IMG/VR virus record: IMGVR_UViG_2556921664_000001
Location: 8,766 to 72,765 of that record
DNA from: a virus
Taxonomy: Duplodnaviria; Caudoviricetes
Length of the DNA stretch: 64,000 nucleotides
Reading direction: 5' to 3' (one strand)
Below the pieces are notes generated by a model, which did not search any database, was not told the origin of the DNA, and worked only from the letters and a program-made list of their open reading frames with translations. This document shows, one piece after another, positions 6,584-24,725 of the stretch; the first letter of the stretch is position 1, and the number at the start of each line of letters is the position of its first letter. The position numbers and the translations under genes are program-made.

Positions 6584-6750
6584 GAAGGCAAGCCCTGGGC
6601 AAATGCGCCCTTTGCCTCTTCGTTGATTTCTGAACTGTCTGCCTCGTCAGATGCAAATGCCTGTGGATCAACAGTGGCATACCCTGGCTTCTTTTTTTCA
6701 GAGGTGTCGGCTACCCCGTTGATGAAATCAGCCCTCATCTTGGCATCCAT
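6538..6750 (-). CDS. Small acidic hypothetical protein (70 aa)
   Basis: Strong RBS (AAGGAGGAGAGG); C-terminal LPSWDLVPP motif; overlaps the next gene. Confidence 0.65.
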   Translation of the reverse strand: MDAKMRADFINGVADTSEKKKPGYATVDPQAFASDEADSSEINEEAKGAFAQGLPSWDLVPPQMPVRRKR

Positions 6751-6765
6751 AATTTCCTCTCCTCC

Positions 6766-8490
6766 TTATACCCGAATAGTGCGCTTTGCCCCAGCAAGTC
6801 TCTTAACATATTGCTCCGGCTTAATCTGTTCCAGAAAATCCAATACCTTTTGGCTCTCCGAATCCCTATTGGAAAAATCCGCACGGAAGTCGACGACCTC
6901 CGCCAAAACAGCTCTAATCATTTGGCTGCCAGTTTTCACTTTTTTGGCAAATTGTTCCTCAATGTCCGCACGCACTTTTTCCAGTTCTTTCTTGCGTGAA
7001 AAATGCTTTAAGATACATCCGAATCCAGCCAATACTACCACAACTCCCAATTTCCCGGTTTGGGCCATTATCAGGCCGACAACAATGAGCGCACCACCGC
7101 CGTAAAGACAAAATTTGTCAAATAGTGTGAGCACATGAGGCGCAAGTGCCTGTTCTTTTTCGGCATCTACTTCCCCTTGGTATTTCGCTAATAATTCAGC
7201 CTCATTAGTCCCGTCGACGGTTGTCCCTTGGAAGTTATCAATTGTAAAAGGAATCTCATGAGGTATTTTCATCCGGTTTTTCGCAACAATATCTGTATAG
7301 GCATTGTAAATCCAATCCCTCGACAAAGCTATGGCAAGTTTTTGGGTTGATGGGCTGGCATGTGAACTTGCGGCATTCATAGCAGCATCAGTCAAAAGCT
7401 GGGTAAAATCCTTGCGGGATTCAAACGCTGATTTTTCCAAAGTCATATTTCTATTTGCACGGTCCTCATCACCATTGAATTTTACAATCAACATATCCAG
7501 CTGTTCCTGCCTGCGGAGCGGTAATTCTTCTTCATCATAATCTGTCACAAGACTTTTCAATATACTATCCAGTTGTTGCTCAAGTTTCATGCTTGTAGAG
7601 GGCTGGGCAAAAATCTGAGAAAAATATTTCAGAATTTTTTCGTGCAAACTAGCTCCTTCCAAAATATCTGCCATGACAGGCCACAATGCCGTATAGCGTC
7701 TAACATATTGGTAGGAAGACGTGTCGATTGGCGTACGTTTTGCAATGATTGCATTGGACCACTGTCTTGTCTGCTGTTCAACAAAACCTGTTCTTTCAGA
7801 TAAATATGCCAACCATTCGTTCATTTGTCTGGCAACAAGTCCCTCCGTGTCCGCCCCGAACAAGCCGTTGGCATAAGCATCAAGTATTATAACAGCTGTG
7901 CGCTCAAGAGCTGCTGCATCCTGATTTGCCAAATAACGTTGCAACCATTGAATACTTGCTCTTTTACGTGCAGCCCTACGGCATACCAACAGGAAAAATA
8001 AGGACGTCTTTGTGTCGCTTCTCCTGATTCCTTCCTTCAGTGCTCTTTCCGCCAGTTCCGGCTGATCGCTGATCCAGGCCGCCAAAGCAACAAGACAAGG
8101 AGCAAGCCAATATCCTGGTGTAGAAAGCATCAATTCCTCAGTAGCGGTGCTTATTGTTTCCTTTCTTACAATTCCCAAATCGTCCGCCTGTAAAATACCA
8201 GTGGCCGTACGACGAACAAGCTCGTAATGCCCAAATTGACGTTCCAGTGTCTGCCGAACTTCTATAAGGTCAGTCTTTGCCCGTTGCAGATTATTAGCCA
8301 AATGCTGATACTGAATAAACTGTTGCAGGTCGTTTTTTAAAGTATCAAGGGTATCATCTACATCGCGCATGCGTTCATCCAAGCGACCAATGTCATCATT
8401 AATACGTTCCAAATCCCTGCTGATGTCCAGCAAATTATCTTCAATTGTGCTAAGATCAGCTTCCTGAATTATCCGTTCACTCACGACCAT
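6766..8490 (-). CDS. Coiled-coil/helical-repeat membrane protein with a C-terminal transmembrane hairpin (574 aa)
   Basis: N-terminal heptads (IEDNLLDISRDLERINDDIGRLDERM); two hydrophobic segments near residues 460-500. Confidence 0.8.
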   Translation of the reverse strand: MVVSERIIQEADLSTIEDNLLDISRDLERINDDIGRLDERMRDVDDTLDTLKNDLQQFIQYQHLANNLQRAKTDLIEVRQTLERQFGHYELVRRTATGILQADDLGIVRKETISTATEELMLSTPGYWLAPCLVALAAWISDQPELAERALKEGIRRSDTKTSLFFLLVCRRAARKRASIQWLQRYLANQDAAALERTAVIILDAYANGLFGADTEGLVARQMNEWLAYLSERTGFVEQQTRQWSNAIIAKRTPIDTSSYQYVRRYTALWPVMADILEGASLHEKILKYFSQIFAQPSTSMKLEQQLDSILKSLVTDYDEEELPLRRQEQLDMLIVKFNGDEDRANRNMTLEKSAFESRKDFTQLLTDAAMNAASSHASPSTQKLAIALSRDWIYNAYTDIVAKNRMKIPHEIPFTIDNFQGTTVDGTNEAELLAKYQGEVDAEKEQALAPHVLTLFDKFCLYGGGALIVVGLIMAQTGKLGVVVVLAGFGCILKHFSRKKELEKVRADIEEQFAKKVKTGSQMIRAVLAEVVDFRADFSNRDSESQKVLDFLEQIKPEQYVKRLAGAKRTIRV

Positions 8491-8530
8491 CCCCCCTTGT
8501 ATATCAAAAACGATTATTCATACTGCTTTA

Positions 8531-11353
8531 TCATATATTTACAGCTTCACGCAGCTTTTCCCACACTTTAACCATTGCATACGTATCAAGACCACAGTAT
8601 TTAAGCAAATACCCACGATATTTTTCCAGTTCCTCTGGAGACATGTCAGCCATAGCTAGAAATGCATTTGATGCTTCAGTGCCATTATGAATACCTTCAA
8701 GATTGTGATAATCCAGCGCAGGATCATCCGGAAATAGTGCTGGTAACACAAGCTTGATAGAAGAACGTCCCTGCATTTCCTTGACATAATAATGCTCATT
8801 ATGAAACGGCATCTCAAGGTCTTGGATATGGTCATGGATATTCATCAAGTGTTCAGCCAAGTCAGGGAAAAGTTCCGCTAATTCCTTTACACGCCCTTGT
8901 TCGAATGATTTATGATATGCCAACGTACAACCATTCAACGTAATATCCATGCAAAGCTGCTCTGCTATCCCTCTACGTGGGTCTTCTCCAGGATATGCCA
9001 GATATTCCTTGTGTTTTAGTTCCCCTCCCTCCTGTTCAATATAGTGAAGGGAATACTGAAATACTATCTGTGCATAAGGCTTTGCATTATCATATTGTGG
9101 TACGGCCATTTGGCAAGATTCGAAATCAAGGAAATACAATGGATAGGATAACCCCACCAAAAATTTTTGAATCTCCTCTTTTTCAATATGCGGTGCCTTT
9201 TCAAAAAGCTCGTACTCTATCTGTATTTTCTTCACTCCTGCCTTATATAGCTGGTTGAAATCGATTATTCCCTGATGATAATATTGGATTTTTTTCTTCC
9301 ATTGTGGTGAGTTACCCGCGACATCAAATACATTAGGTTGTGGCAGGTGTCCGGTACAGTATTTCCAACAGTCGCACATTACACCATCTCTTTTGCAATG
9401 TTCATCAATGATATCTGGAGATTCGTCCTTTTGCTTCATGTACTCAGTAAATTTACCTAAATTAGCCTCCACCTCATCATGCTTGGCCTTTGCTTGTTCT
9501 GTAAAATCCACCACTGTGAAAAGATCCTGCAAATCAAGTTCTCCATGCCGCACATATTTATTGTTCAAATGCATTAAATAGACTCGATTCACCTCAAAAC
9601 CACACTTTTCCACCACAAAGCACTGGAAAGCTACATCATCATAATAATGATCCTTGATTTTCGCGGTACTCTTTACCTCATAAATATCCACTTTTTTCCC
9701 GCCAAGATGATGTAATATATCAACGCTACAGAAAAGATTGTCTACCGCAAAGGACGCCTCTGCAATGTACTCTTGCCCATTCTCCAAAAGTTCATTTGTC
9801 CGTGTAACCATGCTACCGAGATTGTTCTTATTAAAGGGCACAACAACACAACCATCAAATCGCTTTTGAGCCAGTATCCCCACCTCATTGCCAACAGCAA
9901 TACGTTCTTCAGAGGCCGGCGACTCATCGATAATCTCAGGCTTATTAGTTTTTAACCACAATGCCTTAGGGCACTGTGTCGCCATTACATACTTCGACTT
10001 GGAACAAATCAATGTAGATACCTCTGTAATCATATCGCCATATCCCAAATCTTTCATTTTTTGAATGAACTTTAAAAAATTTTTCTTAGTATTAGCTGCA
10101 CCCCATTCTCTGCAAATAACTACTGTAGTATTATCTCTCAGTACTATAGGATAATCTGTTAAAAATCTTGATTTATCCTTGTCTGGTACTTCAGAAAGAT
10201 TCTTTATCACGCCGTATGACCCCTGCAAATCCTTAGGAAATACTCTGCACAGTCCTTCATAATTAATATCAGGATGTTTTTCAACATAAAGGCCCACAAC
10301 AGATAATACAATTCTTCCTAATGCGGTTTGTTCACCATTAAATAGGTATCTTGAAGTTTTAGATTTGCCAGTTGGTTTATTATCATTATTTTTTTCTTTT
10401 TTAAATGATGTGCCATATTTTAGCGGCTTTGGTAGTTCATCTATGAATGAGCTGCTTACGTTGTTTACCATCGCCAGCTTATTAAATTGTTGCATATTTT
10501 CTTGTCCATACCTTGTATAAAACTGCTGACGCACATAATTTATTACATCAGGATTTTCACCAATCAGATAATTTGAGTTTCCACTTTTCGGGACAAGGAA
10601 ATAATTTAACGGGTCACAAAAACGTAGAAAATGTGCCTTGACAATATTCTTTTCTTCATCAGTCCAAATATCTGGGAGACGTCGTACATGATCTTCATTT
10701 TCTATCCAATCCGCCACCACCCCTCTAGGAAATAATTTATCACTTAAAGCTTCTGGCAAATAGAAATCATCACTTCTATGGTTATTTTCCTTTAAACTAG
10801 CAATATGTGCCAAATACCAACCTTTCCCATTTAAAATCCCCGTTTCTCTAGGATGTCCAAGAAATTGATTTTTGTTGGCTATCAACGCTTCTTCACTTTT
10901 TTTGCCATTATCATAGTGCATTGGATACATATTATCATTTAATAATTTAGCAAATTCCTCTGCTGTGGGAACAATGCCCTTGTGAGCCATATTATAAATC
11001 TCATGTACCTCAAAATTGCTGGCAAACACGTAGGAGCAACCGTCAGCCATAACAGTTTTTGCAGCGCGCCTATTTTTATACGGTCTTAGCCCGCGCTGTT
11101 CCCAATTCTTATTATTTCCGCCTTCATATTTTCTTATCAAAAATACCGCATCCGACCGGTCAATATACTCAACCAACATTTTGTGCCAAGCAATAGCGTA
11201 TTCGCTGTCTATTAGTGTAGGTTTAATACATTTCTCATACAATTCAGTAACGGTTTTTACTTCTTCATATTCTGGTAATGAAATTTCAAAATCAATTATC
11301 TTCTTTTCATTATGCCTTGAAAAATAATCTTGAATTCCTGTAAAAATTGCCAT
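8531..11353 (-). CDS. Multi-domain fusion: possible His-Me/HNH-like N-terminal domain, restriction-associated middle domain, and DUF2779-type PD-(D/E)xK plus RNase H-like nuclease
   Basis: The C-terminal ~490 aa start SKSKYVMATQCPKALWL and contain CSVDILH...IYEVKST (Cas4-like), a Cys cluster and YFLDFE...DTYAM. The N-terminus has WYLAHI...DPLNYFLVPK. Confidence 0.75.
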   Translation of the reverse strand: MAIFTGIQDYFSRHNEKKIIDFEISLPEYEEVKTVTELYEKCIKPTLIDSEYAIAWHKMLVEYIDRSDAVFLIRKYEGGNNKNWEQRGLRPYKNRRAAKTVMADGCSYVFASNFEVHEIYNMAHKGIVPTAEEFAKLLNDNMYPMHYDNGKKSEEALIANKNQFLGHPRETGILNGKGWYLAHIASLKENNHRSDDFYLPEALSDKLFPRGVVADWIENEDHVRRLPDIWTDEEKNIVKAHFLRFCDPLNYFLVPKSGNSNYLIGENPDVINYVRQQFYTRYGQENMQQFNKLAMVNNVSSSFIDELPKPLKYGTSFKKEKNNDNKPTGKSKTSRYLFNGEQTALGRIVLSVVGLYVEKHPDINYEGLCRVFPKDLQGSYGVIKNLSEVPDKDKSRFLTDYPIVLRDNTTVVICREWGAANTKKNFLKFIQKMKDLGYGDMITEVSTLICSKSKYVMATQCPKALWLKTNKPEIIDESPASEERIAVGNEVGILAQKRFDGCVVVPFNKNNLGSMVTRTNELLENGQEYIAEASFAVDNLFCSVDILHHLGGKKVDIYEVKSTAKIKDHYYDDVAFQCFVVEKCGFEVNRVYLMHLNNKYVRHGELDLQDLFTVVDFTEQAKAKHDEVEANLGKFTEYMKQKDESPDIIDEHCKRDGVMCDCWKYCTGHLPQPNVFDVAGNSPQWKKKIQYYHQGIIDFNQLYKAGVKKIQIEYELFEKAPHIEKEEIQKFLVGLSYPLYFLDFESCQMAVPQYDNAKPYAQIVFQYSLHYIEQEGGELKHKEYLAYPGEDPRRGIAEQLCMDITLNGCTLAYHKSFEQGRVKELAELFPDLAEHLMNIHDHIQDLEMPFHNEHYYVKEMQGRSSIKLVLPALFPDDPALDYHNLEGIHNGTEASNAFLAMADMSPEELEKYRGYLLKYCGLDTYAMVKVWEKLREAVNI

Positions 11354-11356
11354 CAG

Positions 11357-11458
11357 TCAGTTCCTCCTAAATCCATGTCCTGAAGTTGTCTGTTTTTTCG
11401 GTCCGCCCCAATTAATACAGGTTGCACATCTTAGAAAATATGTAGGATCCGGTGCCAT
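11357..11458 (-). CDS. 33-aa Cys-rich mini-ORF, truncated paralog of 23650..23838
   Basis: Not in the ORF track. MAPDPTYFLRCATCINWGGPKKQTTSGHGFRRN* with AAGGATGG RBS; shares CxTCxNWGG with the 62-aa protein. Confidence 0.55.
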   Translation of the reverse strand: MAPDPTYFLRCATCINWGGPKKQTTSGHGFRRN

Positions 11459-11583
11459 AAATAACCATCCTTGTAATAAATGTAATACATCTTTAATTTA
11501 AGTTTTTTGACCTCTGCATTCACTTCTATAATCCTGCTATAAGAAGGATATATATTATTTAGCCTACTTTTTTAAGCATCAAA

Positions 11584-12153
11584 TTAAAATTCACACTCAA
11601 GACCGCAATCAAGCAGTTCCTCCTCCAGTTTTCTCTTCATGATAACAACACCGGTCTTCTTCATTGGGCAGTGTTTCTCGGACATGGAATGAATTACATT
11701 GTCGGCAGTAGAAAGAACATTCTCAATTTCTTTGACAGCCTTATTTACAATTTTATTGCAGACCGCATGTATATCAACATCGTTGAAGTCAGTGTTGTCT
11801 ATTTTAAGTGGCTGCATGCTATCTTCTTGGATATTAAAAGTATAGGCAATCCCGTTCTTATATAAAACAGACTCAACATATTTAAAAGCTTCCATCACAT
11901 GTTTTGATGGTACATGTTCCTTAATTTCATTCTCAGTATCAAACATAATTTTTTTGAAATGCTCATCCACCTTCTCAGCAGTTCTTTTGGCAATCTTGTT
12001 ACTCAATTCTCTGGTCTCTAAATACATTTCACGATACCTAGCGCCTTTTCTCTTCAGCATAACAGCTTTGTAAAGCTTTTTCTTGATGTTCTTGCCCCTA
12101 CGTTTAACATTTGCCATTTTATTCAACTCTCCCCTGTCCCCAAAGTAAACCAT
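11584..12153 (-). CDS. Hypothetical basic helical protein (189 aa)
   Basis: Long ORF downstream of the PolC-like gene; Lys/Arg-rich N-terminus. Confidence 0.7.
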   Translation of the reverse strand: MVYFGDRGELNKMANVKRRGKNIKKKLYKAVMLKRKGARYREMYLETRELSNKIAKRTAEKVDEHFKKIMFDTENEIKEHVPSKHVMEAFKYVESVLYKNGIAYTFNIQEDSMQPLKIDNTDFNDVDIHAVCNKIVNKAVKEIENVLSTADNVIHSMSEKHCPMKKTGVVIMKRKLEEELLDCGLECEF

Positions 12154-12258
12154 CCTGCATTTATAATCATTTATTACTTTCTATACACATCTTTAAAATC
12201 CTGCTGTATGGAAAAATATTATTATCCTAAACTATTGAGGAAATGCGGCCATGCTGGT

Positions 12259-14310
12259 TTATTCTGCATATACATCAATATAAGCCTGCTGATACTCTTT
12301 TGGATAGTGAACTTTATAGTACACCATACGATATAAAAGAGCTGTATAGTCAATGGCCTGGGCTCTGGAAACCAAATATCTGATCTTTTGGCAGGAGTCA
12401 ATATACCAATCTGGTATATTATGTTCTTTTAGAATTGCCACCATATCAGGTTTTATGCCACGTCCCTTGCGTACAGCTTCCATTATTTTAACTGCCGTCA
12501 TTGGTTCAATTCCCATCCCAATAAGGTATGTCATAATATCATCACGTGTAGCTATAACCTCTTTGAAGGTACACACCCCATCCTTAAGCAGAAGTTCGGT
12601 ATTATTATTCCATGCCCCGGAATCAAATGATGCCAATGCAATGATTTTTACAAGCTCATTCATACTGCTTGGCTTTACCATGGACATAATCTGGTAAAAC
12701 AGCTTGCTTAGTTGAATTCCCATTTGCCCAGATGTTCCCTTATTCTCTTTCATGACATCACCAAATGATTCTGGCTTCAAGGAACATAAACATGATAGCG
12801 TTTCAGCATCGCTAAGGGATATATCTCTAATCCGGTAATTAGTACTGTCCTCCATTTTTTTCAGAAAATCCATCTCCCTAAGTGGCAGCATATCAAGCTT
12901 TATCAGATCCCCTAATAGTGCGCGATAATCAAAATAAGTTGTTAACCACTGATCATCAGTATCTTCGGATATATACTGAGTGGGCGTAAAACAATGAACA
13001 TCCATATCCTGGGGAATCAGCATCAATGCGGCTGGATGAACGCCTGTATCTGACGGGATATTTATTATCCCCGGTTTAAAGACGTTATTTTCCCCCAATA
13101 TTTCCTTTATATATGAACGAAGCATCGGGATCTGCTGAGCAGAATAACAAATGTCAATATCCGGTATTTTTCTGCCATCAAAGCCAAGAAAAACTGCATA
13201 AGACATGTCCCAGCCGTCTTTTATCAGCGGTTCACCGCAAATAGGACAATTTTGATCAGGTAAATCGGCTCCAAATACGTATTCATTATCAGTAGCAAAT
13301 TCACTGTGTTTACATTTTGGGCAGCGCCAATGGGGCGGAAGAGGATTAATATCCGTAATCCCCAACAGATTTGCAACCAATGAGGAACCTACGGAACCGC
13401 GGGAGGTAGTACTATAACCATTCCCATGGGTTTTATCTGCAAGCTTCCGGGAAATTAAATACAGCGACGAATAACCATTCCTGGTGATAATTGACAGTTC
13501 CTTATCAAGTCTTTCTTTCACCACCGCAGGGAGATTTTGACCATATATCCTGTGCGCTGCTTCGTATGAAAGATTTTTTACAGTTTCTTCCGCCTCAGGC
13601 AAAACAGGCAGATGGATTCCTTCCGGTATTGGTCTTAGTCGGTCAATCATATCTGAAATAAGCTGCGGGTTATTGATCACAACATCATAAGCTGTTTTTT
13701 CTCCAAGATAACTGAAGGATTTCAACATTTCATCTGTTGTTTGTAAAACTTCTATACCTTGGTCAGCAGCCACTACGGACTTATTAATTTTTGCCGCTAA
13801 CTCCACAAGTTTTATATTGGTGTCACACAAATCATCATCTGGCTGAATTTCCAAGTAATCATAAAAGGCGGCAATTTCCAAAAGCCTTTCTTCACTTTTA
13901 TGTGAGGCTATGGCCTGTATAAGCTGACCATCAAGCCCTGCAGCCCCTACGAGTAATCCTTCACGGTGTTGTTCCAAAATTTCTTTTGATATACTATGAG
14001 CCTCGTTTCCTGGCTTGGTATGTAATAATGTAACCAAGTTATACAGATTTTGAAGACCAATCTTATTTTTGGCCAAAACAATCACGTGATATACAGATAA
14101 TAAATCTGCATCTTCCGTCGACAATAAAATTTCCATGCCGTAGATTATTTTGATGTCAAGATTATCCCCCTCAACAATTTGCATAGCCTCCGGAAACGCC
14201 TTTACTGAACAGATATCAGTGATTGCCACAGCTTTCCGACCTCTCCGGGCGGCTGTACTAATATATTCTTTCACGGACATTTCATTAGCTATTTTACTTG
14301 ATAATTTCAT
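12259..14310 (-). CDS. Minimal PolC-like family-C DNA polymerase (degenerate PHP, Zn finger, palm/fingers; no OB, exonuclease or C-terminal duplex/clamp-binding region)
   Basis: RGSVGSS, CPKC...CPIC, KIPDIDI, KLDML, TRDDIM, VRKG, PDWYIDSC and YKVHYP all match PolC motifs, but the protein is only 683 aa. Confidence 0.88.
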   Translation of the reverse strand: MKLSSKIANEMSVKEYISTAARRGRKAVAITDICSVKAFPEAMQIVEGDNLDIKIIYGMEILLSTEDADLLSVYHVIVLAKNKIGLQNLYNLVTLLHTKPGNEAHSISKEILEQHREGLLVGAAGLDGQLIQAIASHKSEERLLEIAAFYDYLEIQPDDDLCDTNIKLVELAAKINKSVVAADQGIEVLQTTDEMLKSFSYLGEKTAYDVVINNPQLISDMIDRLRPIPEGIHLPVLPEAEETVKNLSYEAAHRIYGQNLPAVVKERLDKELSIITRNGYSSLYLISRKLADKTHGNGYSTTSRGSVGSSLVANLLGITDINPLPPHWRCPKCKHSEFATDNEYVFGADLPDQNCPICGEPLIKDGWDMSYAVFLGFDGRKIPDIDICYSAQQIPMLRSYIKEILGENNVFKPGIINIPSDTGVHPAALMLIPQDMDVHCFTPTQYISEDTDDQWLTTYFDYRALLGDLIKLDMLPLREMDFLKKMEDSTNYRIRDISLSDAETLSCLCSLKPESFGDVMKENKGTSGQMGIQLSKLFYQIMSMVKPSSMNELVKIIALASFDSGAWNNNTELLLKDGVCTFKEVIATRDDIMTYLIGMGIEPMTAVKIMEAVRKGRGIKPDMVAILKEHNIPDWYIDSCQKIRYLVSRAQAIDYTALLYRMVYYKVHYPKEYQQAYIDVYAE

Positions 14311-14412
14311 AATTATTCCCCCTAAGTTTAAAACAATAATGTATAATACTAATATACGTTGAAATTTAAATTGCGCTCCAAAATCAATCAGCCTGATACG
14401 GAGGTGTGAGTT

Positions 14413-15588
14413 TTGACAGAAGGTAACAATCTGACAGCTACAGAAAAATTAAGAAAAGCCCGAATCAGAATAATGAACAAACAGCCTTTTTTCGCTTCCC
14501 TTATTATGCTCCTTACACCAGTTGAAGATGATTCTATAGGAACAGCAGCGACTGATTCAAAAAACCTATTCTATGCTCCTTCTTATATAGAAAAATTGTC
14601 TATTGAGGAAGTTATTTTTGTGTATCTGCATGAGATTCTCCACTGTGCCTTAGGACATATCTGGAGACAAAAAGATAAGGATCATAGACTTTGGAATATT
14701 GCCACTGATTATGCAATTAATGGTATGTTACATAACGATATAAAACTAAATCATTTTCTCAAAATGCCACCAAGTCTGCTATATAAAGAAACATATTATG
14801 GTATGTCAGCGGAAGAAATATATGATTCCCTTAAGTCAGATATTGCTAGAGCTTTCGTTAGCGTTAGCGTTGGCAATGGTGATGATGGTGATGATGAGCC
14901 TCAAAACCATGTTTTATGGAAAAATGCTGATAAAAACGAACGGATAAACTGGCAATACAATACCAAGATTGCAATTAAAAATGCAGAAAGATATGGTAAA
15001 GCACCTTCATATCTTACAGAAATAATTAAGCGGTTAAAACCACCACAAAAGGATTGGCGAACTCTATTGAATGAATTTGTCCAAGAGGAAATAAATGATT
15101 TTTCACTTATGCCGCCGGACAACCGTTTTGATGGGGATTTTTTCATTTTTTCCTTTTCCGATACAACAGAAGTGGTAAAAGACTTGCTGTTCTTTGTTGA
15201 TACATCTGGTTCCATGCGAATAAATGAATTAGAGGCTTGTTATTCGGAAATAAACGGTGCCCTCCAGCAATTCAATAGGCAACTACAGGGTAAACTTGTT
15301 TTTTTTGATGCAGTTGTCCATGAACCATTATACGATTTTGACGACATCAAAGATATCAGATCTGTATGTCCTATAGGCAGGGGCGGTACCTGTTTTTATG
15401 CTATATTTGATTTTTTAAAAGAATATAAGAATGCTCATAATCCCATTGCGGGTGTCATTATTTTAACTGATGGACAATGTGACTACGATGACATCGATGC
15501 ACCAGATTTTCCTGTTCTTTGGGTATTTACTACCCATGACAACAATCCACCCTTTGGCTTATCTACTACCATCGAAGTCAGCCCATAA
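14413..15588 (+). CDS. DUF2201-type metallopeptidase-like plus vWA domain protein
   Basis: HEILH (HExxH), NIATDYAIN, MIDAS elements VDTSGSM, GGT and LTDG; TTG start with GGAGG RBS. Confidence 0.88.
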   Translation: MTEGNNLTATEKLRKARIRIMNKQPFFASLIMLLTPVEDDSIGTAATDSKNLFYAPSYIEKLSIEEVIFVYLHEILHCALGHIWRQKDKDHRLWNIATDYAINGMLHNDIKLNHFLKMPPSLLYKETYYGMSAEEIYDSLKSDIARAFVSVSVGNGDDGDDEPQNHVLWKNADKNERINWQYNTKIAIKNAERYGKAPSYLTEIIKRLKPPQKDWRTLLNEFVQEEINDFSLMPPDNRFDGDFFIFSFSDTTEVVKDLLFFVDTSGSMRINELEACYSEINGALQQFNRQLQGKLVFFDAVVHEPLYDFDDIKDIRSVCPIGRGGTCFYAIFDFLKEYKNAHNPIAGVIILTDGQCDYDDIDAPDFPVLWVFTTHDNNPPFGLSTTIEVSP

Positions 15589-15639
15589 CAGTTATCCTAA
15601 TATGACGCATATTAATTTTGTACGAGGGAGGAACATATA

Positions 15640-16755
15640 ATGTCTTATATGGATATGATTAGTAATGAAAATTATTCACAAATTTCCTGTAATAAATTTA
15701 TCAATATCATGTCTGCCCTGTATTCCGAAGGAGATTTTTCCAAACAACCAACCAAAATGTTATGGGGCCAGCCAGGTGTTGGTAAATCCCAGGCAGTACA
15801 ACAATTTGCCAACATACTGTCAGAAAAAACCGGTAAAAAAACTAATGTAAAAACTGTTTCCTTACTGCTGATGAATCCTATTGACCTTAGAGGTATTCCA
15901 GCCAAATCGAAAAATGAACGGAACGAAGATGTGGCCAAATGGTTATCCCCGGATATATTCAAATTGGATCCCAGTGATGATGTTATCAATATCTTATTTT
16001 TGGACGAAATATCAGCGGCTCCACCATCTGTTCAGGCTGCGGCATATCAAATATGCCTTGACAAACGCATCGGCGAGCATGTTCTCCCGACCAATACTAT
16101 AGTAATATGTGCCGGCAACAGGGTTTCAGACAAAGCTGTGGCATTTAAAATGCCTAAGCCCCTGTCCAATCGTCTTACTCATTTTGAAATAATTGCTGAT
16201 TTAGATTCATGGCGTTCATGGGCTTACCAACACAATATCAATGACTCAATCATTGCGTTTATTACATGGCGACCAGATTACCTTAATAAATTTGACCCCT
16301 CAAACGATGATGTGGCTTTTCCTACTCCCCGTTCCTGGGAATTAGTCAACACTTATATGCAATTTGGCTTTGAGGAAATGTTTGAATGTATAGCTGGAAC
16401 CGTCGGACTGGCAACAGCCATTGAATTAAAATCATTTATTGATCTTTCCGTAACACTACCTACTTTTAGTGATATTATTGCCAACAAAGCCGAATTACCA
16501 GCTAATAATGATCCTGCTGTAATGTATGCTATTTCTTCAATGATTACTTCAAATGTAGTGCAAAATGGCTCTACGCTTAAACTGAAAGAAAAGAATAATC
16601 TGTTTAAATATATTGGCTCCTTTAAGCATGATGAATACATTCTCCTTACATTGCAAGATATTATAAAAAATTGCCCTGAATTTAATAAATATCTTTTAAA
16701 AAACAAAGATACCATCAAATTTATTAAGCAATTTCGCAATGATTTAACTAATTAA
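15640..16755 (+). CDS. MoxR-like AAA+ ATPase partnering the vWA protein
   Basis: Walker A GQPGVGKS, Walker B ILFLDE, AGNR, PLSNRLTH, PTPRSWE. Confidence 0.88.
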   Translation: MSYMDMISNENYSQISCNKFINIMSALYSEGDFSKQPTKMLWGQPGVGKSQAVQQFANILSEKTGKKTNVKTVSLLLMNPIDLRGIPAKSKNERNEDVAKWLSPDIFKLDPSDDVINILFLDEISAAPPSVQAAAYQICLDKRIGEHVLPTNTIVICAGNRVSDKAVAFKMPKPLSNRLTHFEIIADLDSWRSWAYQHNINDSIIAFITWRPDYLNKFDPSNDDVAFPTPRSWELVNTYMQFGFEEMFECIAGTVGLATAIELKSFIDLSVTLPTFSDIIANKAELPANNDPAVMYAISSMITSNVVQNGSTLKLKEKNNLFKYIGSFKHDEYILLTLQDIIKNCPEFNKYLLKNKDTIKFIKQFRNDLTN

Positions 16756-16798
16756 TCACCATTAATTAATGCACAGATGTTTGTGGGAGTGATAAGCA

Positions 16799-17908
16799 AT
16801 GGATACAAATATTTCTGCAGAAAATTTAATTTTAGATCACATGGCACTTAATACCATATATATCATCAGCAAAGAAGCATTGGCAAAATTCCCAGATAAA
16901 TCTATAATTATCGGCGTGGACTACAAAATGGAATTTTTAACAGGGACTGAAGATTATGATTTAGTATGCTGTTATAAATTCCAAAGATATGATTATGTAT
17001 ATTATATTTTTTTAAATCTTACAGGTTGGAGACACCTCCTTATAATTAACGAACCAATTAACGAAATTGGCCCCGCAAAAACATATCACAATCCTAATAT
17101 TTGTAGCAAAAAAGCTGTTGAGGAAGCAAAAGAATTACCCCGTGTTTTTTTTAATCACTTTCACCTATACTATGATATAGTCAACGATAAAATTCACTGT
17201 GAATATAATATTAACAGCTATATGTATAGAAATGAAATAAACGCTTTATTTCATTCTCTACTTACTTTTCTTGCACTTAACCCGTCAGAGCATCCAGATG
17301 TTTTACAATTTTTGCAAAATAATATTGTTGATAGATACATAAAAAAAAGAGAAAGCATTCTATTTACCTTTAGCAAAGACAGAACGACTGTTAGCCATTT
17401 TACCTATATTGATTTTTATAATGAATCAGCTAAACATATATTAGTTGCAGCCGTATATATTGATCAAACTGATCAAAAATGCTATTTTTTGGGTGGGCAT
17501 AAAGCAAGGTGTATTGATGATTCATTGAGGTTAAGCAATAATAATAAATACTACATTGACAATCAAAACATGCCCAATAGGAAATATTATGATTTGTCAA
17601 AAATGAATGTTGATGATAATGAATTTAGTTATTTTATCGAAAATTTTTACCCACATAAAGCCTCAATCGCCAAAATAGACTATTACTATGATAGTGGCTT
17701 ATTAATTAGGTCAACTGATGATCGTATTAAAATAATTTTTAATACCTACAAAGAAAAGGAAGATGGTATTTTGTTCCTTTTCAAGCGTAATATAGTAATC
17801 GATGAGAAATTACAACTAAAATTTAAAAAATTACCAAAAAAAGCCAAACGCCTTGATACTGAACACTATCGAAAAGTTATTGATCGTTACTTAGCGACAA
17901 TAATATAA
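16799..17908 (+). CDS. Hypothetical protein (369 aa), very AT-rich
   Basis: Long ORF in the operon with vWA/AAA; Tyr/Ile/Asn-rich; no motif recognised. Confidence 0.7.
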   Translation: MDTNISAENLILDHMALNTIYIISKEALAKFPDKSIIIGVDYKMEFLTGTEDYDLVCCYKFQRYDYVYYIFLNLTGWRHLLIINEPINEIGPAKTYHNPNICSKKAVEEAKELPRVFFNHFHLYYDIVNDKIHCEYNINSYMYRNEINALFHSLLTFLALNPSEHPDVLQFLQNNIVDRYIKKRESILFTFSKDRTTVSHFTYIDFYNESAKHILVAAVYIDQTDQKCYFLGGHKARCIDDSLRLSNNNKYYIDNQNMPNRKYYDLSKMNVDDNEFSYFIENFYPHKASIAKIDYYYDSGLLIRSTDDRIKIIFNTYKEKEDGILFLFKRNIVIDEKLQLKFKKLPKKAKRLDTEHYRKVIDRYLATII

Positions 17909-18498
17909 CCCCGTTTTTTAAAACAATTCATAACCACCCTTGCCCATTTAGAATAATCCTGTCCCCAGGCCCCCTTCATATTGCCATCAGCAAGTTCTTT
18001 TAATATTTCCTTCCGTGACTGGAAAAAGCTGGCAAATTCAGGATAATCACTGCCATATTTTTTCAAAAATTCTTTAATGTTTGCTTTTGCAAATATTTCC
18101 ATTGCAAAGATCAAGCCCTCCAAATCTTCATAACCATGTCCCATAAAATCCCTGTCCATACAGCCAGCAAATATTTTGCTAAGCTGATCCAGAAGGCCAG
18201 GGATTTTTTTCACCCCATTATACTTTGTAAGGGCATGAACAATAATTCCGGTTATCATATATGTTGGTTCATATATGTACATAACACGGGCATCATCCGG
18301 CATATCAGAAATATCTTCCATGTGCCAAAGAAGAATTTTGGAATTATGCTCAGTTCTCTTCGCTGCTTTTAAAACGGTTGAAATAAAATTGACTGACTCC
18401 GCCTCGGAAACCTTATTCTCAATATATTCCTCAAAATTTTCTTTCACAATTTCCAAAAATTTATCCGGTTTGTTCTCATTAATAAAATTAGTGTTCAT
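17887..18498 (-). CDS. Hypothetical protein (203 aa)
   Basis: Overlaps the stop of the MotA-like gene; 3' end overlaps the convergent 369-aa gene. Confidence 0.7.
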   Translation of the reverse strand: MNTNFINENKPDKFLEIVKENFEEYIENKVSEAESVNFISTVLKAAKRTEHNSKILLWHMEDISDMPDDARVMYIYEPTYMITGIIVHALTKYNGVKKIPGLLDQLSKIFAGCMDRDFMGHGYEDLEGLIFAMEIFAKANIKEFLKKYGSDYPEFASFFQSRKEILKELADGNMKGAWGQDYSKWARVVMNCFKKRGYIIVAK

Positions 18499-19396
18499 AA
18501 TTATCCCCCCTATAATTTTCCCAAAACCTTAAATCAGCAGACCAGTTAGGATCAAAGAAAACATCCAAAACCTTGACATCCTTGTACTCGTCCAAAAATG
18601 GCTGTCTGAGCAGTTCATCCTGTTCCTCAGAATTTAAATAAACAAGCTGGCTTCGTAATATTTCAGTTGGAGCAACACCTTCCTGTATCAAAACATGCCC
18701 TCTCATTACCTGCTGCTGAATATTTTTTTCATTGTCCCAGTAGCTGTGTAATCTGCCAGGCAACAAAATACCGATAATAATGCTTAAAAGCAGACTCAAT
18801 ACAGTCAGCAGGCACACACATATAATGCTTTCTGGTGGATTATTCAAACCAATAATTGTGCGAATAGCAAGATCCAGCCCTCCAGCTATTCCCCCAAGCA
18901 GTCCTATTACCAATATACTCATTCCCAACTGCCTCAAGATATTAATTTTTTCATAAATTTTCTGACGGCCGATTGAACCAGCACGCTGCAACGCTCCTTT
19001 AATATCCTCCGGTTTATAGCCATTGAGAACCATTTTTTTGCCCATGTGATATACAAAATTCGGATAATTTTTATCCAAGGAAAATTCAACAGCCGAAGTG
19101 ATTCCCCTCCTTCTGAGAACCCAACATGCCGTAAGAAATAATCTTGCCAAAAATAGAGATTCGCCCTGCATTCTGTTTTGAAGTGGTAGATCACTGGCAA
19201 AAACTTCTTTCCACTTGGCGTTAAAGGATACTGCTGAAAAAACGACAAAGCCTATGCCAAGATATGTGATTAATACAGGCCAAAGGTTATCCAAATACAG
19301 CGTAGCTGTTGCTCCACCGATAAACAGGATAACTCCGAGGATAATATACCATTCTGTTTCCATATTTCTTTTCATAGCAATTCCCTTTCCTTTCAT
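18488..19396 (-). CDS. Divergent MotA/TolQ/ExbB-like membrane protein with no MotB partner
   Basis: Four TM segments. The cytoplasmic loop MGKKMVLNGYKPEDIKGALQ and the tail GHVLIQEGVAPTEILRSQL resemble the MotA GLQLVVDG.DP and EG.L.IQ.G.NP motifs. Confidence 0.65.
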   Translation of the reverse strand: MKGKGIAMKRNMETEWYIILGVILFIGGATATLYLDNLWPVLITYLGIGFVVFSAVSFNAKWKEVFASDLPLQNRMQGESLFLARLFLTACWVLRRRGITSAVEFSLDKNYPNFVYHMGKKMVLNGYKPEDIKGALQRAGSIGRQKIYEKINILRQLGMSILVIGLLGGIAGGLDLAIRTIIGLNNPPESIICVCLLTVLSLLLSIIIGILLPGRLHSYWDNEKNIQQQVMRGHVLIQEGVAPTEILRSQLVYLNSEEQDELLRQPFLDEYKDVKVLDVFFDPNWSADLRFWENYRGDNYEH

Positions 19397-19399
19397 TTA

Positions 19400-21526
19400 C
19401 TACATCATGCAAAAACCAATTTGATGTTTTTCAGCTGGCTCCGAACCAAAAAATTCGTTTTTAAAATCATTAATAGTAAGATTTTTAATCATTTGTCTGT
19501 CAATATTTTCAGCGGAATAAGAATTGACCAGATATTCAGCGTGAGAAAGTACAGCAGCCTCCAACACATTGCGAACAAATCGGCCATTGCCAAAATCCTT
19601 TTTATCAGAAGCTTTTTGGAACAGTTCACGGCAATAATCCATGCTTTCCTCATCCAGCCTGTATCCCTGCTCTTCTGCCATGCACTCAAGAATTCTGCAC
19701 AACTCATGTGCATCATAGTCAGAAAAGTCCAGATGAAACGCTATACGGCTTCTTAGGCCAACATTACGTTCAATAAATGATTTCATTGGCTGTGGGTATC
19801 CTGCAAAAATAACCAGCACATTTTCCCGGCGATTTTCCATTTCCTGCACAATGGTATTTATAGCTTCATCCCCATATAGTCCCTGTCGTTCATCCACCAG
19901 AGAATATGCTTCATCAATAAATAGTATTCCCCCTTCAGCTTCATCAAATTTTTTGATTACAATAGGAGCTGTGTGCCCTACAAACTTGCCTATCAGATCA
20001 GCCCTTCCACACTCCACGAAAGCGCCGGTGGAAAGAATATTACGCTCCTTCAGTATGCCGGCCAGCAGACGTGCCACTGTGGTTTTTGCAGTACCCGGAT
20101 TACCGGTAAAAACCATGTGCAGGGCAGGCTTTTTAAGTTCTATTCCTTTTTTCTTTTGGATCGCCTGTATCTGATGTACAGCCAATATGCGATCAACTAA
20201 TTTTTTTACCTCCTTTAAGCCAATTAATTGCTGCAACTGTTCATAGGAATTATTTTCTACTTTTTCCTCTATTGTTTTATCAGCCGCCTTGATTCTGCGA
20301 TAAGCAGGGTAATGCTCCCATCTTATTAACTCATCAGCAGCTTTTTCGTAGGCTTCCCAGGCTTCTGTTACAGAATACGTTTTTCCGGCTGTAAAGACGT
20401 TTTTCAGTTCCTTGGCCGTGAATTTCCGTTGTCCACGACTAATGGCCAAATAATTTATATACTTTTTCGCTTGTTTTTCCCCTCCAACCCCTTCACTTAT
20501 AGTGACAAAATCAATCGCACCATTTAAGGATTCAATAAAACATCTGGTAGCATCAAGTTCTTTCTTGGCTGGTACAACCAGAATAAACAGCGTATTATTC
20601 CTATGCTGCTTTATTTCAGATACCAGATTATCAATATAATCTTCATGAAATGCATGTTTAAAATGTCCGCCTTTTCCTCTTTTTGTATCCATCCCCTCTG
20701 ACATATACAGTACCATGGTTGATTGCTGGGCCAAGGAAACGATAGAATTCCAAAAAGAAATTTTACTGTCGTGAGGTACAAAATCATAAAAAGAAAAGAT
20801 CCTTTTACTTTTAAGCCGATTCCTTGCATAAAGAGCAGATACCAAAAGGTCAATCATTTCCTGGGCTGTTTCTTGTCTTTCAGCCTGTATTATATAGTGA
20901 ACAGGATGGCCCCAAAATTCATTGCTGTTTTGAGCATCGTATATCCTGTCCAGCTCATCCCGTAAACTTTGATGGGCCATAATATTTTCCGCCTGATGTA
21001 TTGCATTATTGAGTTTTTTGGGAATGGCAGAAACTATATTTTCTTCAATACGATATTGCTTATGAACCGTCGAGTTTTTATTTTCAAAGTACTCCATGGA
21101 AAAATAATTCAAAATGGACCAGTGTGCTCTGATCAAATCTTCTTTATATCCCATTTTCACACACTCACAAAAATCCGAGCAGGTAATTTCTCTCAAATTT
21201 GTAATAAAGATACTTCTGATTCCGGAAATTTTATTATCAAAAATCATTTTTATCCGTTCTTCTACTTTGCTGAAATCCTCAAATTTCTGTTCCCGGTTGT
21301 GGGCCAATATCACACTGATCTTTTTAGCGTTATTATCTATATGATATACAAAGATACTCTGCCCTTCTTCGGCAATTTCCTTCCCCATGTCCATGTTAAT
21401 ATCCCTGAAAGCATCCCGATTATCTTTCCTGGATGCAGTTGATGCAGACTGTTTTGCTTCTGATTCCTCACTCACAGGAATATCCGTAATTTCTTCATAC
21501 TGTAAGTCAAAGTGGTATAGCAGCAT
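19400..21526 (-). CDS. SpoVK/CbbX/EccA-like AAA+ ATPase with a long N-terminal region
   Basis: LHMVFTGNPGTAKTTVAR, LIGKFVGHTA, GILFIDEAYSL, IFAGY, GLRSR, FGNGRFVRN. Confidence 0.9.
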   Translation of the reverse strand: MLLYHFDLQYEEITDIPVSEESEAKQSASTASRKDNRDAFRDINMDMGKEIAEEGQSIFVYHIDNNAKKISVILAHNREQKFEDFSKVEERIKMIFDNKISGIRSIFITNLREITCSDFCECVKMGYKEDLIRAHWSILNYFSMEYFENKNSTVHKQYRIEENIVSAIPKKLNNAIHQAENIMAHQSLRDELDRIYDAQNSNEFWGHPVHYIIQAERQETAQEMIDLLVSALYARNRLKSKRIFSFYDFVPHDSKISFWNSIVSLAQQSTMVLYMSEGMDTKRGKGGHFKHAFHEDYIDNLVSEIKQHRNNTLFILVVPAKKELDATRCFIESLNGAIDFVTISEGVGGEKQAKKYINYLAISRGQRKFTAKELKNVFTAGKTYSVTEAWEAYEKAADELIRWEHYPAYRRIKAADKTIEEKVENNSYEQLQQLIGLKEVKKLVDRILAVHQIQAIQKKKGIELKKPALHMVFTGNPGTAKTTVARLLAGILKERNILSTGAFVECGRADLIGKFVGHTAPIVIKKFDEAEGGILFIDEAYSLVDERQGLYGDEAINTIVQEMENRRENVLVIFAGYPQPMKSFIERNVGLRSRIAFHLDFSDYDAHELCRILECMAEEQGYRLDEESMDYCRELFQKASDKKDFGNGRFVRNVLEAAVLSHAEYLVNSYSAENIDRQMIKNLTINDFKNEFFGSEPAEKHQIGFCMM

Positions 21527-21786
21527 TTTTCTTCCTCCTCAAATTTTGTCTCTGTTAATCTTTGGTTTAATTAAACCAAAACATTTTACATCTGTCAAGA
21601 TTTAAAAAAATCATTTTATACATTTTCTTTTGAGTGCCATAAACCATACCGCATGTAACAGTTAAACAAGCCTGTAAATGCCGTTTTATTGGCATGTGAA
21701 AAAAGTATTTTAAAATGCACGATAAATTTTTCTTGACAAAGATGTGTTTTTTTGGTTTATTTAAACTATAGATTGGAGGAACGGAT

Positions 21787-23568
21787 ATGGAGACTAAAAT
21801 AATCGATAAATTACTTTCCCTGGGATTGCGCCGTATTTGCAGGATTTTAAATGACTGTTTACGGTCTGACTATGCAGATACAAGGCCAGAAGCAATGTTT
21901 GCCTTAGCGGCGTCAGCATATTCCAAAAAGCTTGAAGCATTAAATCTGCTTTCACCTGATACATTTGAAAAACGCATTTCCGATGAAGATACCAGATCAT
22001 ACATGAGAGAATTCTCTCAGCAGCATGAGGGTATCATTGAAGAAATAATACAAAAATTAAGCATTGAAGAATTACAGGCTGCACTTTTGTTTGGAAATAA
22101 TGACTCTGTTATGAGTACATTGAAAACGCTCCCAGCCAGCGCAGCCCGTCTTTCCCTTAAATTATTGGATATACAGGACGGTGACAGTATATTAAATATT
22201 GCTTCCGGAAGAGGAATTTTCTTGCGGGAAGCTATTTTTCAAAATTCAAATATTAAATCATTTGCCCTTGATAGCAACCGCTCCATGTGTCGCATATTAA
22301 ATATCCTTTCAGCCTGCATGGGATGGAACATCAATGTACAGGGGGGTGATATTTTCTCCAGCGATTTAAAATCAATAAAAGCCAATAAGCTCTTTATTGA
22401 TGCACCGCTAGAAGAAAAAGAGATGGACTGGGAAAAATTCCATAACGAAATCGAAAATGATCCTTCGTTCAAGGATTTGGACTTTAATAACATACCTACG
22501 AAGCTGACAACCATGTGGTTTAAGATTATTTCGGCCCTTCGCTTTCAAGCTAAAAAAGCACGAGCCGTTGCAATTATTCGCGACAACTCGGATTTAATTG
22601 GTCCCGATACGGAAATCCTACGCAAAAAGCTAATAAACGAAGGACGTATTGAAGCAGTTATTTCATTACCGGAAAAATTGGATTATAACCGCTCCCCCAT
22701 TTATCTTGTAGTGTTTAGTACCAATAATTCTTCCGTTCGTTTGGTGGATGCCCATGAAATATATACTTCAGCGGATGAGGAACCACCTCAGAAAAAGGTA
22801 TCCATCGGACTTCATCCCCTTCAGACGTTAAAGGAGAAGGATATCGAGGAAATCTTGCAGGAATTAAAGACAGACAGTTCCATCAGCCGCTCTTTTTCCA
22901 ATAAGGAATTGGCTCTCCGCAATTACAAACTGTTGCCAGATGTGGAATACTGGAACAATGATGACTACTGCAGAAGCCTTGCCAATTCGACAATGCCGGC
23001 TATAAAGGAAATCTGTCAGATATATCGCGGCGACATTACTGCCAATGCCAAGAATTTAAAAAATTCCTTCAGTGAAGCTCCTACGGATTTCCAGTATCTT
23101 CAGCTAAAGGATGTACAGGAAGGTATTATTAAAACACCGCTGCAATATCTGAAAAGCATAGATGAAAAGCAGTATCCTTTCTGTGTAGAAAAAGATATTT
23201 TGGTCATGGGCAGAAATGCCCCAATAAGAATAGGATTTTTACAAGTACCCGAAAACACAAAGGTATTATTGAGCGGTAATATATATGCCCTACAAACAAA
23301 TGAGGAAATATATGACCCTGTTTACCTGATGTTATATTTGCAAAGTGATGATGGCATGAGGCAACTTTCTCATATTCTTAGAGGCAGGACTGCAATGCAG
23401 ACCATCGCCTTAAGGGATTTGGAGCAGGTTAAGATACCACTTATACCATTGGAAGAACAAAAGGCTGTTGTGGCAAAATTCTGGGAGCTGCAGGAAAATC
23501 TCCAACAACTTCTCGACAAAACAAACCAGATAAGAGCTTCCATCCGTCAGTTGGTAACAGTTGTTTAG
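21787..23568 (+). CDS. HsdM-like N6-methyltransferase fold fused to an HsdS-like TRD; catalytic motif degenerate
   Basis: Motif I LNIASGRGIFL; motif IV reads IDAPL instead of NPP(F/Y); GRIEAVISLPEK is HsdM-like; the C-terminal IKEICQIYRG...VKIPLIPLEEQKAVV is HsdS-like. Confidence 0.8.
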   Translation: METKIIDKLLSLGLRRICRILNDCLRSDYADTRPEAMFALAASAYSKKLEALNLLSPDTFEKRISDEDTRSYMREFSQQHEGIIEEIIQKLSIEELQAALLFGNNDSVMSTLKTLPASAARLSLKLLDIQDGDSILNIASGRGIFLREAIFQNSNIKSFALDSNRSMCRILNILSACMGWNINVQGGDIFSSDLKSIKANKLFIDAPLEEKEMDWEKFHNEIENDPSFKDLDFNNIPTKLTTMWFKIISALRFQAKKARAVAIIRDNSDLIGPDTEILRKKLINEGRIEAVISLPEKLDYNRSPIYLVVFSTNNSSVRLVDAHEIYTSADEEPPQKKVSIGLHPLQTLKEKDIEEILQELKTDSSISRSFSNKELALRNYKLLPDVEYWNNDDYCRSLANSTMPAIKEICQIYRGDITANAKNLKNSFSEAPTDFQYLQLKDVQEGIIKTPLQYLKSIDEKQYPFCVEKDILVMGRNAPIRIGFLQVPENTKVLLSGNIYALQTNEEIYDPVYLMLYLQSDDGMRQLSHILRGRTAMQTIALRDLEQVKIPLIPLEEQKAVVAKFWELQENLQQLLDKTNQIRASIRQLVTVV

Positions 23569-23649
23569 GAGGTGAAAAAACATATCTAGCTATGTAGTTG
23601 AAGAGTTATTATGATGATAATTTTGTTTAGTGTATAGGAGGAGTTATTT

Positions 23650-23838
23650 ATGAGTTCATCAAGTGTAGATTACCGGATTTGTGTAACATGCAGAAATTGG
23701 GGCGGTTACAGAAAAACAGACGCATGTAAAATGTGGATAGAATACGACAACAATGAAGAAGGTTATTGTGCAAACTGGCAGTCGGACAAAACGGCTGACA
23801 ATACATGCAGTGGGTGGGAACCATTATACAATTCCTGA
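23650..23838 (+). CDS. Small Cys-rich, probably Zn-binding protein (62 aa)
   Basis: CVTCRNWGG...C...YC...C..W; AGGAG RBS. Confidence 0.7.
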   Translation: MSSSSVDYRICVTCRNWGGYRKTDACKMWIEYDNNEEGYCANWQSDKTADNTCSGWEPLYNS

Positions 23839-23891
23839 TAAACCGTTCTATATGAAGTGAATCAGTTTTTCAAAGCAATATAAAGATAAAA

Positions 23892-23938
23892 AATGGGCTG
23901 TCGCGTTTTGATAATTTTTCAACATGCGACAGCCCATT
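23892..23938. repeat. 13-bp inverted repeat (terminator or REP-like hairpin)
   Basis: AATGGGCTGTCGC...GCGACAGCCCATT. Confidence 0.65.
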
Positions 23939-24094
23939 CAACCCTAAAGGATTTTTCTGAAACTATTAAGGGATACGCCAAGATTAAAACGTGTTTAAAT
24001 CGGCAGAAATAGATTATAAACGTCAATCATAATTTGAGCCACATTTAGATTAGCATTTATAATAGATAGTTGATAACTATGTGCAGGTGATAAT

Positions 24095-24616: not shown

Positions 24617-24690
24617 ATAATACTGGGGAGCCCATTCTAAGGAAATAATTATGAAGACCTCGGCAACTACTGCAACCAATAAAAAAAGCA

Positions 24691-24720
24691 GGCCCCATCA
24701 GAGAACTCTCCGACGGGGCC
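24691..24720 (-). terminator. Terminator of the late/lysis transcript
   Basis: GGCCCC...GGGGCC stem followed on the minus strand by a run of seven T. Confidence 0.75.
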
Positions 24721-24725
24721 ACAAA

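Follow-up and report, generated by a model that had tools for sequence, protein, structure and literature searches.

We analysed a 64,000-nucleotide stretch of the virus record IMGVR_UViG_2556921664_000001 (hereafter the window), a Firmicute-type prophage with a cargo region of low guanine-cytosine content (33-40%) at 8.5-24.8 kb, between the tail/lysis genes and the serine recombinase (integrase). Our subject is the gene block at 8531-23838 of this region. It encodes a short PolC-type polymerase (mini-PolC), a methyltransferase fused to a target-recognition domain (MTase-TRD), an AAA+ ATPase (AAA708) followed by a putative membrane protein (g302), a small Cys-rich protein (g62), a DUF2779 fusion protein (g940), and a MoxR-type ATPase (g371) beside a protein with a von Willebrand factor A-like (VWA-like) domain (g391). 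An earlier note on this DNA had proposed that these genes form one composite system of defence or counter-defence. Its gene inventory was correct, as open reading frame (ORF) calling and family scans recovered every named gene where it had been placed. The proposal itself holds in part: the block is a co-inherited core interrupted by an unrelated cassette, and not one system.

Co-inheritance of the core across divergent loci

The MTase-TRD family is tiny, with 8 protein clusters among 5.8 billion. An ATPase of the AAA708 clade adjoins the MTase-TRD in all four sub-lineages with readable context (38-55% identity), and gene order is rearranged among them. Lineage A consists of the window and the metagenomic sister locus L028; here AAA708 is divergent from the MTase-TRD, and the short PolC lies 7.5 kb away. 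The members of lineage B (L025 and L029) display a divergent pair followed by a g62 orthologue, with MTase-TRD and ATPase 52-55% and 48-49% identical to those of the window, respectively. Lineage C1 (L030 and L037, ~41% identity) encodes a short PolC immediately next to the MTase-TRD, on the other strand and in divergent orientation; in L030 the MTase-TRD is followed in tandem by a 139-aa (amino acid) receiver-like protein and an AAA708-type gene. Lineage C2 (L034; MTase-TRD 41%, ATPase 38%) is likewise in tandem, with the order MTase-TRD, HAD-like gene and AAA715. The start of this arrangement, MTase-TRD then HAD-like gene, is also carried by L033, L035 and L036.

Hence, MTase-TRD and AAA708 remain neighbours at identities as low as ~40%, whether their order is divergent or tandem, and both proteins rank the lineages alike by identity. 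A g62 orthologue comes after the MTase-TRD only in lineages A and B; in L029 of lineage B it reads CGACVYWSGKR...C...C. Linkage to the short PolC is established in two lineages only, while g940 is linked to the core only in lineage A. The core is a conserved, co-inherited and mobile gene set that the prophage carries as cargo, interrupted by a swap site. This is the part of the single-system claim that stands: the dead MTase-TRD, AAA708 and g62 (the last in A and B) travel together across divergent loci, with the short PolC adjacent in L030 and L037. The outcome named beforehand as speaking against that claim, independent occurrence of each unit, does not apply to the MTase-TRD/AAA708/g62 core.

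A further 20-kb contig from a metagenome-assembled genome (P0302; a cluster member is named Schwartzia sp.) encodes a 587-aa protein with no Pfam match, a HAD protein, AAA718, a 273-aa protein and a protein of 523+ aa. This layout is the same as that of C2, with the 587-aa protein as a putative MTase-TRD.

The DNA of 2-26.5 kb had no match in phage records, nor did the MTase-TRD by tblastn. The same search with g940 returned trivial matches only, and with mini-PolC mainly unannotated records at 33-38% identity, some of which look like complete or partial PolC genes. Nothing useful came from scanning viral and genome contigs with single proteins and with patterns from the first alignment, and a second genome scan returned only a 21% relative. 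The block was also absent from 100 genomes of the same family, in which its DNA matched only the host PolC and host AAA paralogues.

Two arms around a swap site

L028 is collinear with the window at 9354-14347 and 18498-24764, at ~94% identity. The left arm comprises g940, g33, g189 and mini-PolC, and the right arm g302, AAA708, MTase-TRD, g62 and g173. The 4.15 kb between the arms are replaced in L028 by 1.7 kb carrying only a 41%-identical g369-like gene, so that a diverged g369 persists there without the MoxR/DUF2201 pair. Identities within the arms were 93-97% for g940 and 95% for g189 (L027 and L028), 98% for both g302 and g62 in L028, and 86% for g173 in L028. L027 confirmed the left arm, continuing into the next operon (g574). 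L032 confirmed MTase-TRD, g62 (50%) and g173 (81%).

Two of the cassette genes have relatives elsewhere. Homologues of the MoxR-type ATPase occur in 853 phage records, g391 matches PHROG 1314, and Thermus phage phiFa encodes a DUF2201 homologue ~1 kb from a MoxR homologue. Since the cassette genes are replaced in L028 and the MoxR/DUF2201 pair recurs in unrelated phages, the cassette is an independent module. Thus the single-system claim fails for MoxR with DUF2201/VWA, g369 and g203, which make up a replaceable cassette absent from the 94%-identical L028. At the swap site between the arms, the MoxR/VWA-metallopeptidase pair is a phage module of its own, and a widely distributed one.

Pairs of MoxR and vWA proteins with peptidase effectors are an already described theme (PMC7159879, PMC12839542), and MoxR and vWA with effector peptidases and a third component constitute described conflict systems (Kaur et al. 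2020, PMC7159879). The cassette resembles these in having a MoxR-type AAA protein beside a vWA protein fused to a metallopeptidase-like domain. It differs in that no VMAP, iSTAND, FtsH or beta-propeller third component was recognised, and the pair belongs to the cassette and not to the core.

The single-system claim is likewise not supported for the DUF2779 fusion: in L026 the C-terminal half of g940 is found at 45% identity with a different N-terminus, in a chromosomal context beside a WYL gene, without PolC or the other parts.

These observations bear on the possibility that the whole block is a set of independent cargo genes (morons) gathered in one prophage hotspot, with no functional unit beyond the single operon. 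Such an assortment would explain why the middle cassette is swapped between near-identical loci and why the MoxR/DUF2201 pair and the DUF2779 half occur elsewhere alone. It would also fit the closest short PolC outside the core (P0145, L039), which lies in a WYL/HD/DnaE context without MTase-TRD or AAA708. However, it does not account for an MTase-TRD/AAA708 adjacency that survives to 38-41% identity and a change of gene order with agreeing identity ranks, or for the recurrence of a short PolC beside this pair in a second lineage (L030, L037). The explanation is already weakened for the core, and we consider it quite unlikely. More generally, what looks like a mega-system in prophage cargo can turn out to be a conserved core split by a swap site, and near-identical sister loci tell the two apart quickly.

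Where the swapped cassette of L028 ends on the right (L028:6585-6705), about 120 bp match the intergenic region between g189 and mini-PolC (window 12122-12244) with 78% identity. This repeat may mark the swap site as an element of recombination or regulation.

A degenerate methyltransferase with a retained recognition domain

In the MTase-TRD, an N6-MTase fold is joined to a single target-recognition domain of type I. Its motif IV is degenerate relative to the consensus (N/D)PP(Y/F/W): DAPL in the window (residues 205-208), and DATF and DAA in lineages B and C, respectively. In motif I, lineages A and B keep the glycine-rich S-adenosylmethionine (SAM) loop (SGRGIF, AGRGIF), and that of lineage C is degenerate (GASLGSF, GTGFSSF). 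The alignments thus bear out the description of this protein as a dead methyltransferase, with motif IV degenerate across the family. The simplest reading of these sequences is that the methyl-transfer chemistry was probably lost and the DNA-recognition domain retained.

The order of an N6_Mtase fold and then Methylase_S is shared with the HsdM-HsdS (M-S) fusions of type I and type IIG restriction-modification (R-M) systems. In contrast to these, motif IV is not NPPF/Y, and the partners are an AAA+ ATPase and a polymerase. No ResIII, DEAD or HSDR match indicative of HsdR was found on the twelve long ORFs scanned at 8.5-24.7 kb. As for BREX and MADS, PADLOC returned only generic Specificity_I matches and weak mad2/mad5 matches on the MTase-TRD, with no PglZ, BrxC or other system proteins, and in NCBIfam the MADS5 score of 28 bits is below the cut-off of 400.

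Among the relatives of the MTase-TRD, the nearest one that is catalytically plausible (26% identity) comes from a Subdoligranulum plasmid (L052), where it belongs to a type I-like R-M operon that also encodes an S subunit and a ResIII/DEAD helicase. Together with the degenerate motif IV of the family, this would suit a counter-defence role: posing as a type I M-S complex, the dead MTase-TRD would titrate out HsdR of the host or some other partner in restriction, helped by the ATPase. Such a decoy would leave the conserved polymerase, the membrane protein and the Cys-rich partner unexplained, and the type I S-like gene of the host is a weak match only. We regard this role as improbable.

Another 26%-identical relative, with a likewise degenerate motif IV (SGPI), lies immediately upstream of type II-A cas9-cas1-cas2-csn2 (L031:256-9134). 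Upstream of the lineage C MTase-TRD of L033 we observed a fragment of a tubulin/FtsZ-family GTPase (L033:822-1349, 175 aa, E 3.7e-15), which hints at a plasmid or phage context of the TubZ type.

Directly downstream of the MTase-TRD, the 62 codons of g62 display the pattern CxxCxNWGG ... C ... C. ORFs with the related CxTCxNWGG motif had been thought to bracket the block, but the left one, g33, is a frameshifted and truncated relic of a g62 paralogue, and there is no second functional bracket. The DNA of g33 aligns to that of g62 with a 1-nt offset after GGCGG (the WGG codons), and its shifted frame would read EKTDNFRTWI, compared to RKTDACKMWI in g62. The relic stops just before the g940 start codon (11353), within the stretch read as the ribosome-binding site of g940. 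The idea of an inverted-repeat bracket was also discarded, as no inverted DNA repeat links the g33 and g62 regions.

AAA708 and the membrane protein g302

AAA708 consists of an N-domain, a degenerate AAA-like D1 and a D2 of the CbbX/SpoVK type. D1 has no P-loop and displays an invariant GHPVHY strand instead, while D2 carries an invariant Walker A (residues 475-482, GNPGTAKT) and an invariant Walker B (D538/E539). An AlphaFold model (predicted local distance difference test score, pLDDT, 76.8) displayed an N-terminal alpha/beta domain, the P-loop-less D1 and D2. In a Foldseek search with this model, D2 was 39% identical to CbbX, with a template modelling (TM) score of 0.74-0.76 on the target, and N-D1-D2 aligned with Drg1, Rix7 and p97. 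AAA708 therefore shares the D2 fold, intact Walker motifs and N-D1-D2 layout of CbbX/SpoVK/EccA and the tandem AAA unfoldases. It differs from CbbX/SpoVK/EccA in the loss of the D1 P-loop, in its first ~100 residues, which are specific to the MTase-linked clade, and in its NCBIfam scores for SpoVK, CbbX and EccA (259, 231 and 189 bits), which are below the curated cut-offs (423, 459 and 467).

The MTase-linked ATPases form a clade (Shimodaira-Hasegawa approximate likelihood-ratio test, SH-aLRT, 98), sister to a 753-aa paralogue on the host chromosome (AAA753; 39% identity over 606 residues). The neighbourhood of AAA753 (L044, G000:C1:144000-163500) carries at 7318-18763 an ADP-ribosylglycohydrolase, a PDDEXK_4 nuclease, a WYL-WCX regulator, AAA753, a pentapeptide-repeat protein, a 306-aa gene and DnaE. 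In L039 and L026, chromosomal relatives of the short PolC and the DUF2779 protein, respectively, are likewise preceded by WYL regulators.

Immediately downstream of AAA708, g302 displays four hydrophobic segments. Its matches are weak and near full-length: the NCBIfam MotA model (E 3.7e-8, 33 bits against a cut-off of 340), MotA of PDB 6YSL (E 0.007) and PomA (E 0.02). By these features g302 can be called MotA-like, a probable distant relative of MotA/PomA. There was no Pfam match, and no MotB-like partner was seen. In the P0001, P0037 and P0302 contigs the AAA gene is likewise followed by a gene of similar size (270-295 aa), a candidate counterpart of g302. The host 309-aa gene after AAA753 was ruled out as a g302 homologue; it encodes a pentapeptide-repeat protein.

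A MotA-like membrane protein in mobile-element cargo is reminiscent of Zorya (ZorA/ZorB). Unlike Zorya, the block had no PADLOC match to ZorA-D and lacks a recognisable MotB-like partner. ZorA is also far larger than the 302-aa g302.

A short PolC without the clamp-binding region

Mini-PolC resembles the PolC of Firmicutes in its PHP, palm, zinc finger and fingers, and is 45-50% identical to host PolC in the palm. Aligned to the host PolCs, it keeps the three palm aspartates, D384 and D386 (PDID) and D473 (KLD), as well as the zinc finger. At 683 aa, compared to 1272-1298 aa in the host PolCs, it has neither an N-terminal nor an OB domain, its thumb is ~37 aa shorter, and its C-terminal ~130 aa (the clamp/duplex-binding region) are missing. 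Its PHP domain is degenerate, with DH changed to DI and the metal-site segments deleted. Its NCBIfam PolC score (657 bits) is under the cut-off of 873. The L030 polymerase is more complete, retaining the OB domain, the DH motif and the thumb.

Mini-PolC, the L030 polymerase, P0145 and P0163 form a clade (SH-aLRT 96), sister to the two PolCs of the host. Both host PolCs lack the DnaQ-type exonuclease insert found within the PHP of canonical PolC; therefore, its absence from mini-PolC was inherited and implies no special deletion. The two host genes lie ~33 kb apart on contig C1 of the host (G000), encoding 1298 aa (133039-136935; L041:2540-6436, minus strand) and 1272 aa (166200-170018; L042:2701-6519, minus strand). 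Many database entries resembling a short PolC are N-terminal truncations of ordinary PolC (P0241 keeps the end of the exonuclease domain), and these were not counted as mini-PolCs. The locus of P0145 is an apparent operon (L039:4497-15090) of WYL, HD, a 475-aa gene, a 287-aa gene with a weak mCpol match, a 481-aa protein similar to PolC only in palm and fingers, the 895-aa short PolC and DnaE.

The kinship of both mini-PolC and AAA708 to host chromosomal paralogues raises the possibility of a phage module for replication or host takeover, in which diverged copies of PolC and AAA753 interfere with or redirect the host replisome and the MTase-TRD binds a site such as an origin. The positions of host AAA753, two genes from DnaE, and of the short PolC P0145, directly upstream of DnaE, fit this explanation. 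Yet the phage already has a full replication module of PolA, primase-helicase and exonuclease at 51-61 kb. The block also sits in a cargo region with divergent promoters and a swap site, and mini-PolC is without its clamp-binding end and part of the thumb. Hence, we consider a takeover module unlikely.

A putative conflict module

By sequence, the core members are diverged paralogues of replication-associated and R-M proteins of the host. Their co-inheritance, domain content and motif states are shown here. We postulate that the core is a prophage-borne conflict module for defence or exclusion, a proposal whose chances we regard as evenly balanced; we infer its role, physical interactions, trigger and outputs alike. 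The MTase-TRD would be a sequence-specific reader that binds particular DNA, and AAA708 would turn this binding into a conformational change. The outputs would be the membrane protein g302, mini-PolC and, in this lineage, the g940 nuclease. A more specific version is an undescribed multi-gene conflict system of dead MTase-TRD, Cys-rich partner, N-D1-D2 AAA+ ATPase and MotA-like protein, with the clamp-independent short PolC as an integral component. This version we hold tentatively, as rather doubtful.

Several observations weigh against the proposal of a conflict module. All related loci are short metagenomic contigs, and the four sub-lineages in which linkage is readable are not fully independent. 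The gene directly upstream of the MTase-TRD in L033-L036 is not a polymerase, and no PolC was seen in the P0302 contig over the 7 kb upstream. Distant relatives of the MTase-TRD (21-26% identity) occur in other contexts, namely the type I-like R-M operon and beside Cas9. The single-sequence model of g302 had a pLDDT of 46, a fold unusable for structure search. Finally, searches of phage, viral-contig and GTDB-representative collections did not recover the system, which is thus very rare.

The block had no system-level match in PADLOC or NCBIfam, and paper searches (DUF2779, truncated PolC in prophages, inactive methyltransferase with AAA+) found no such gene set. Across PADLOC, NCBIfam and the paper searches, we found no described system pairing a catalytically degenerate MTase-TRD with a tandem-type AAA+ ATPase, and no described defence or counter-defence system built on a C-family polymerase paralogue. 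If the core acts as a unit, it would represent a new sensor logic in which an R-M reader is reused without methylation, perhaps with a new output in the form of a polymerase or a stator-like membrane protein. If the short PolC is indeed integral, this C-family polymerase paralogue could make a DNA product or act as a guarded copy of the host replicase. The rarity of the system in current data limits its general importance.

Layout of the cargo region and remaining genes

The coordinates of the block and of its prophage setting are given in Table 1. No tRNA genes were found in the window.

Table 1 Features of the window, with positions counted from its first nucleotide
Feature	Position	Strand	Description
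Large serine recombinase	190-1716		
g940	8531-11353	-	N-terminal ~445 aa of no recognised family; C-terminal DUF2779 (Cas4-like / RNase H-like nuclease region)
g33	11357-11458	-	33 codons, CATCINWGG; frameshifted truncated relic of a g62-type Cys-rich gene
g189	11584-12153	-	Between mini-PolC and g940; no family match
mini-PolC	12259-14310	-	683 aa; Pfam PHP, DNA_pol3_alpha and finger domains
Variable cassette	14348-18497	mixed	g391, g371, g369, g203
g391	14413-15588	+	DUF2201_N metallopeptidase-like and VWA-like DUF2201
g371	15640-16755	+	MoxR-type AAA (AAA_5); PHROG 1297, E 3e-85
g369	16799-17908	+	No family match
g203	17887-18498	-	Sub-threshold Colicin_Pyocin match only (E 0.0013)
g302	18488-19396	-	Four hydrophobic segments; weak MotA/PomA similarity
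AAA708	19400-21526	-	Pfam AAA and AAA_lid_6
MTase-TRD	21787-23568	+	593 aa; Pfam N6_Mtase (E 2.2e-10) and Methylase_S (E 4.5e-6)
g62	23650-23838	+	Small Cys-rich protein, CVTCRNWGG; directly downstream of MTase-TRD
g173	24095-24616	+	End of conserved right arm; no family match; lineage A only
Structural/replication module, complete	~26.5-61 kb	-	DUF2800-type exonuclease, PolA polymerase, primase-helicase, SNF2 helicase, ParB-MTase, terminase, portal, protease, capsid, tape measure

Gene orientations agree with the two divergent intergenic regions described previously (14310-14413 and 21526-21787). Their designation as promoter regions fared less well, as consensus-like sites over the region (79, compared to 63.6 +/- 8 in shuffled sequences) were not clearly more frequent than by chance. 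The consensus matches within the two intergenic regions include TTGGCA-16-TAAAAT at 21689-21716 (plus strand) and sites at 21640-21613 and 14370-14343 (both minus strand).

Among the remaining genes, g940 matches the full profile of Pfam DUF2779 (PF11074) at residues 740-865 (E 6.6e-45, 152.9 bits against a cut-off of 23.3) and displays a weak PADLOC match to Cas4 at residues 518-622. An Atlas structure search with its N-terminal part gave leads (HSDR_N, GmrSD) that were all below a TM score of 0.4. No Pfam, PHROG or PADLOC match was found for g189, and none in Pfam, PHROG or NCBIfam for g369, for which the Atlas search gave only sub-threshold leads.

The conserved arms do not stop at the ends given to the block: the right arm reaches ~24764 through g173, and the left arm runs into the next operon in L027. 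On the right, a strong 13-bp GC-rich hairpin followed by a T-run (24691-24720) lies between g173 on the plus strand and the converging lysis-region genes, and is likely the right boundary of the cargo region. On the left, 40 bp separate g940 from the start of the next operon (3954-8490, minus strand), and the two are contiguous in L027. This operon encodes g574 (with a C-terminal hydrophobic pair), g70, g168, a 524-aa AAA protein (PHROG 8638) and g163, and may belong to the same transcription unit as g940.

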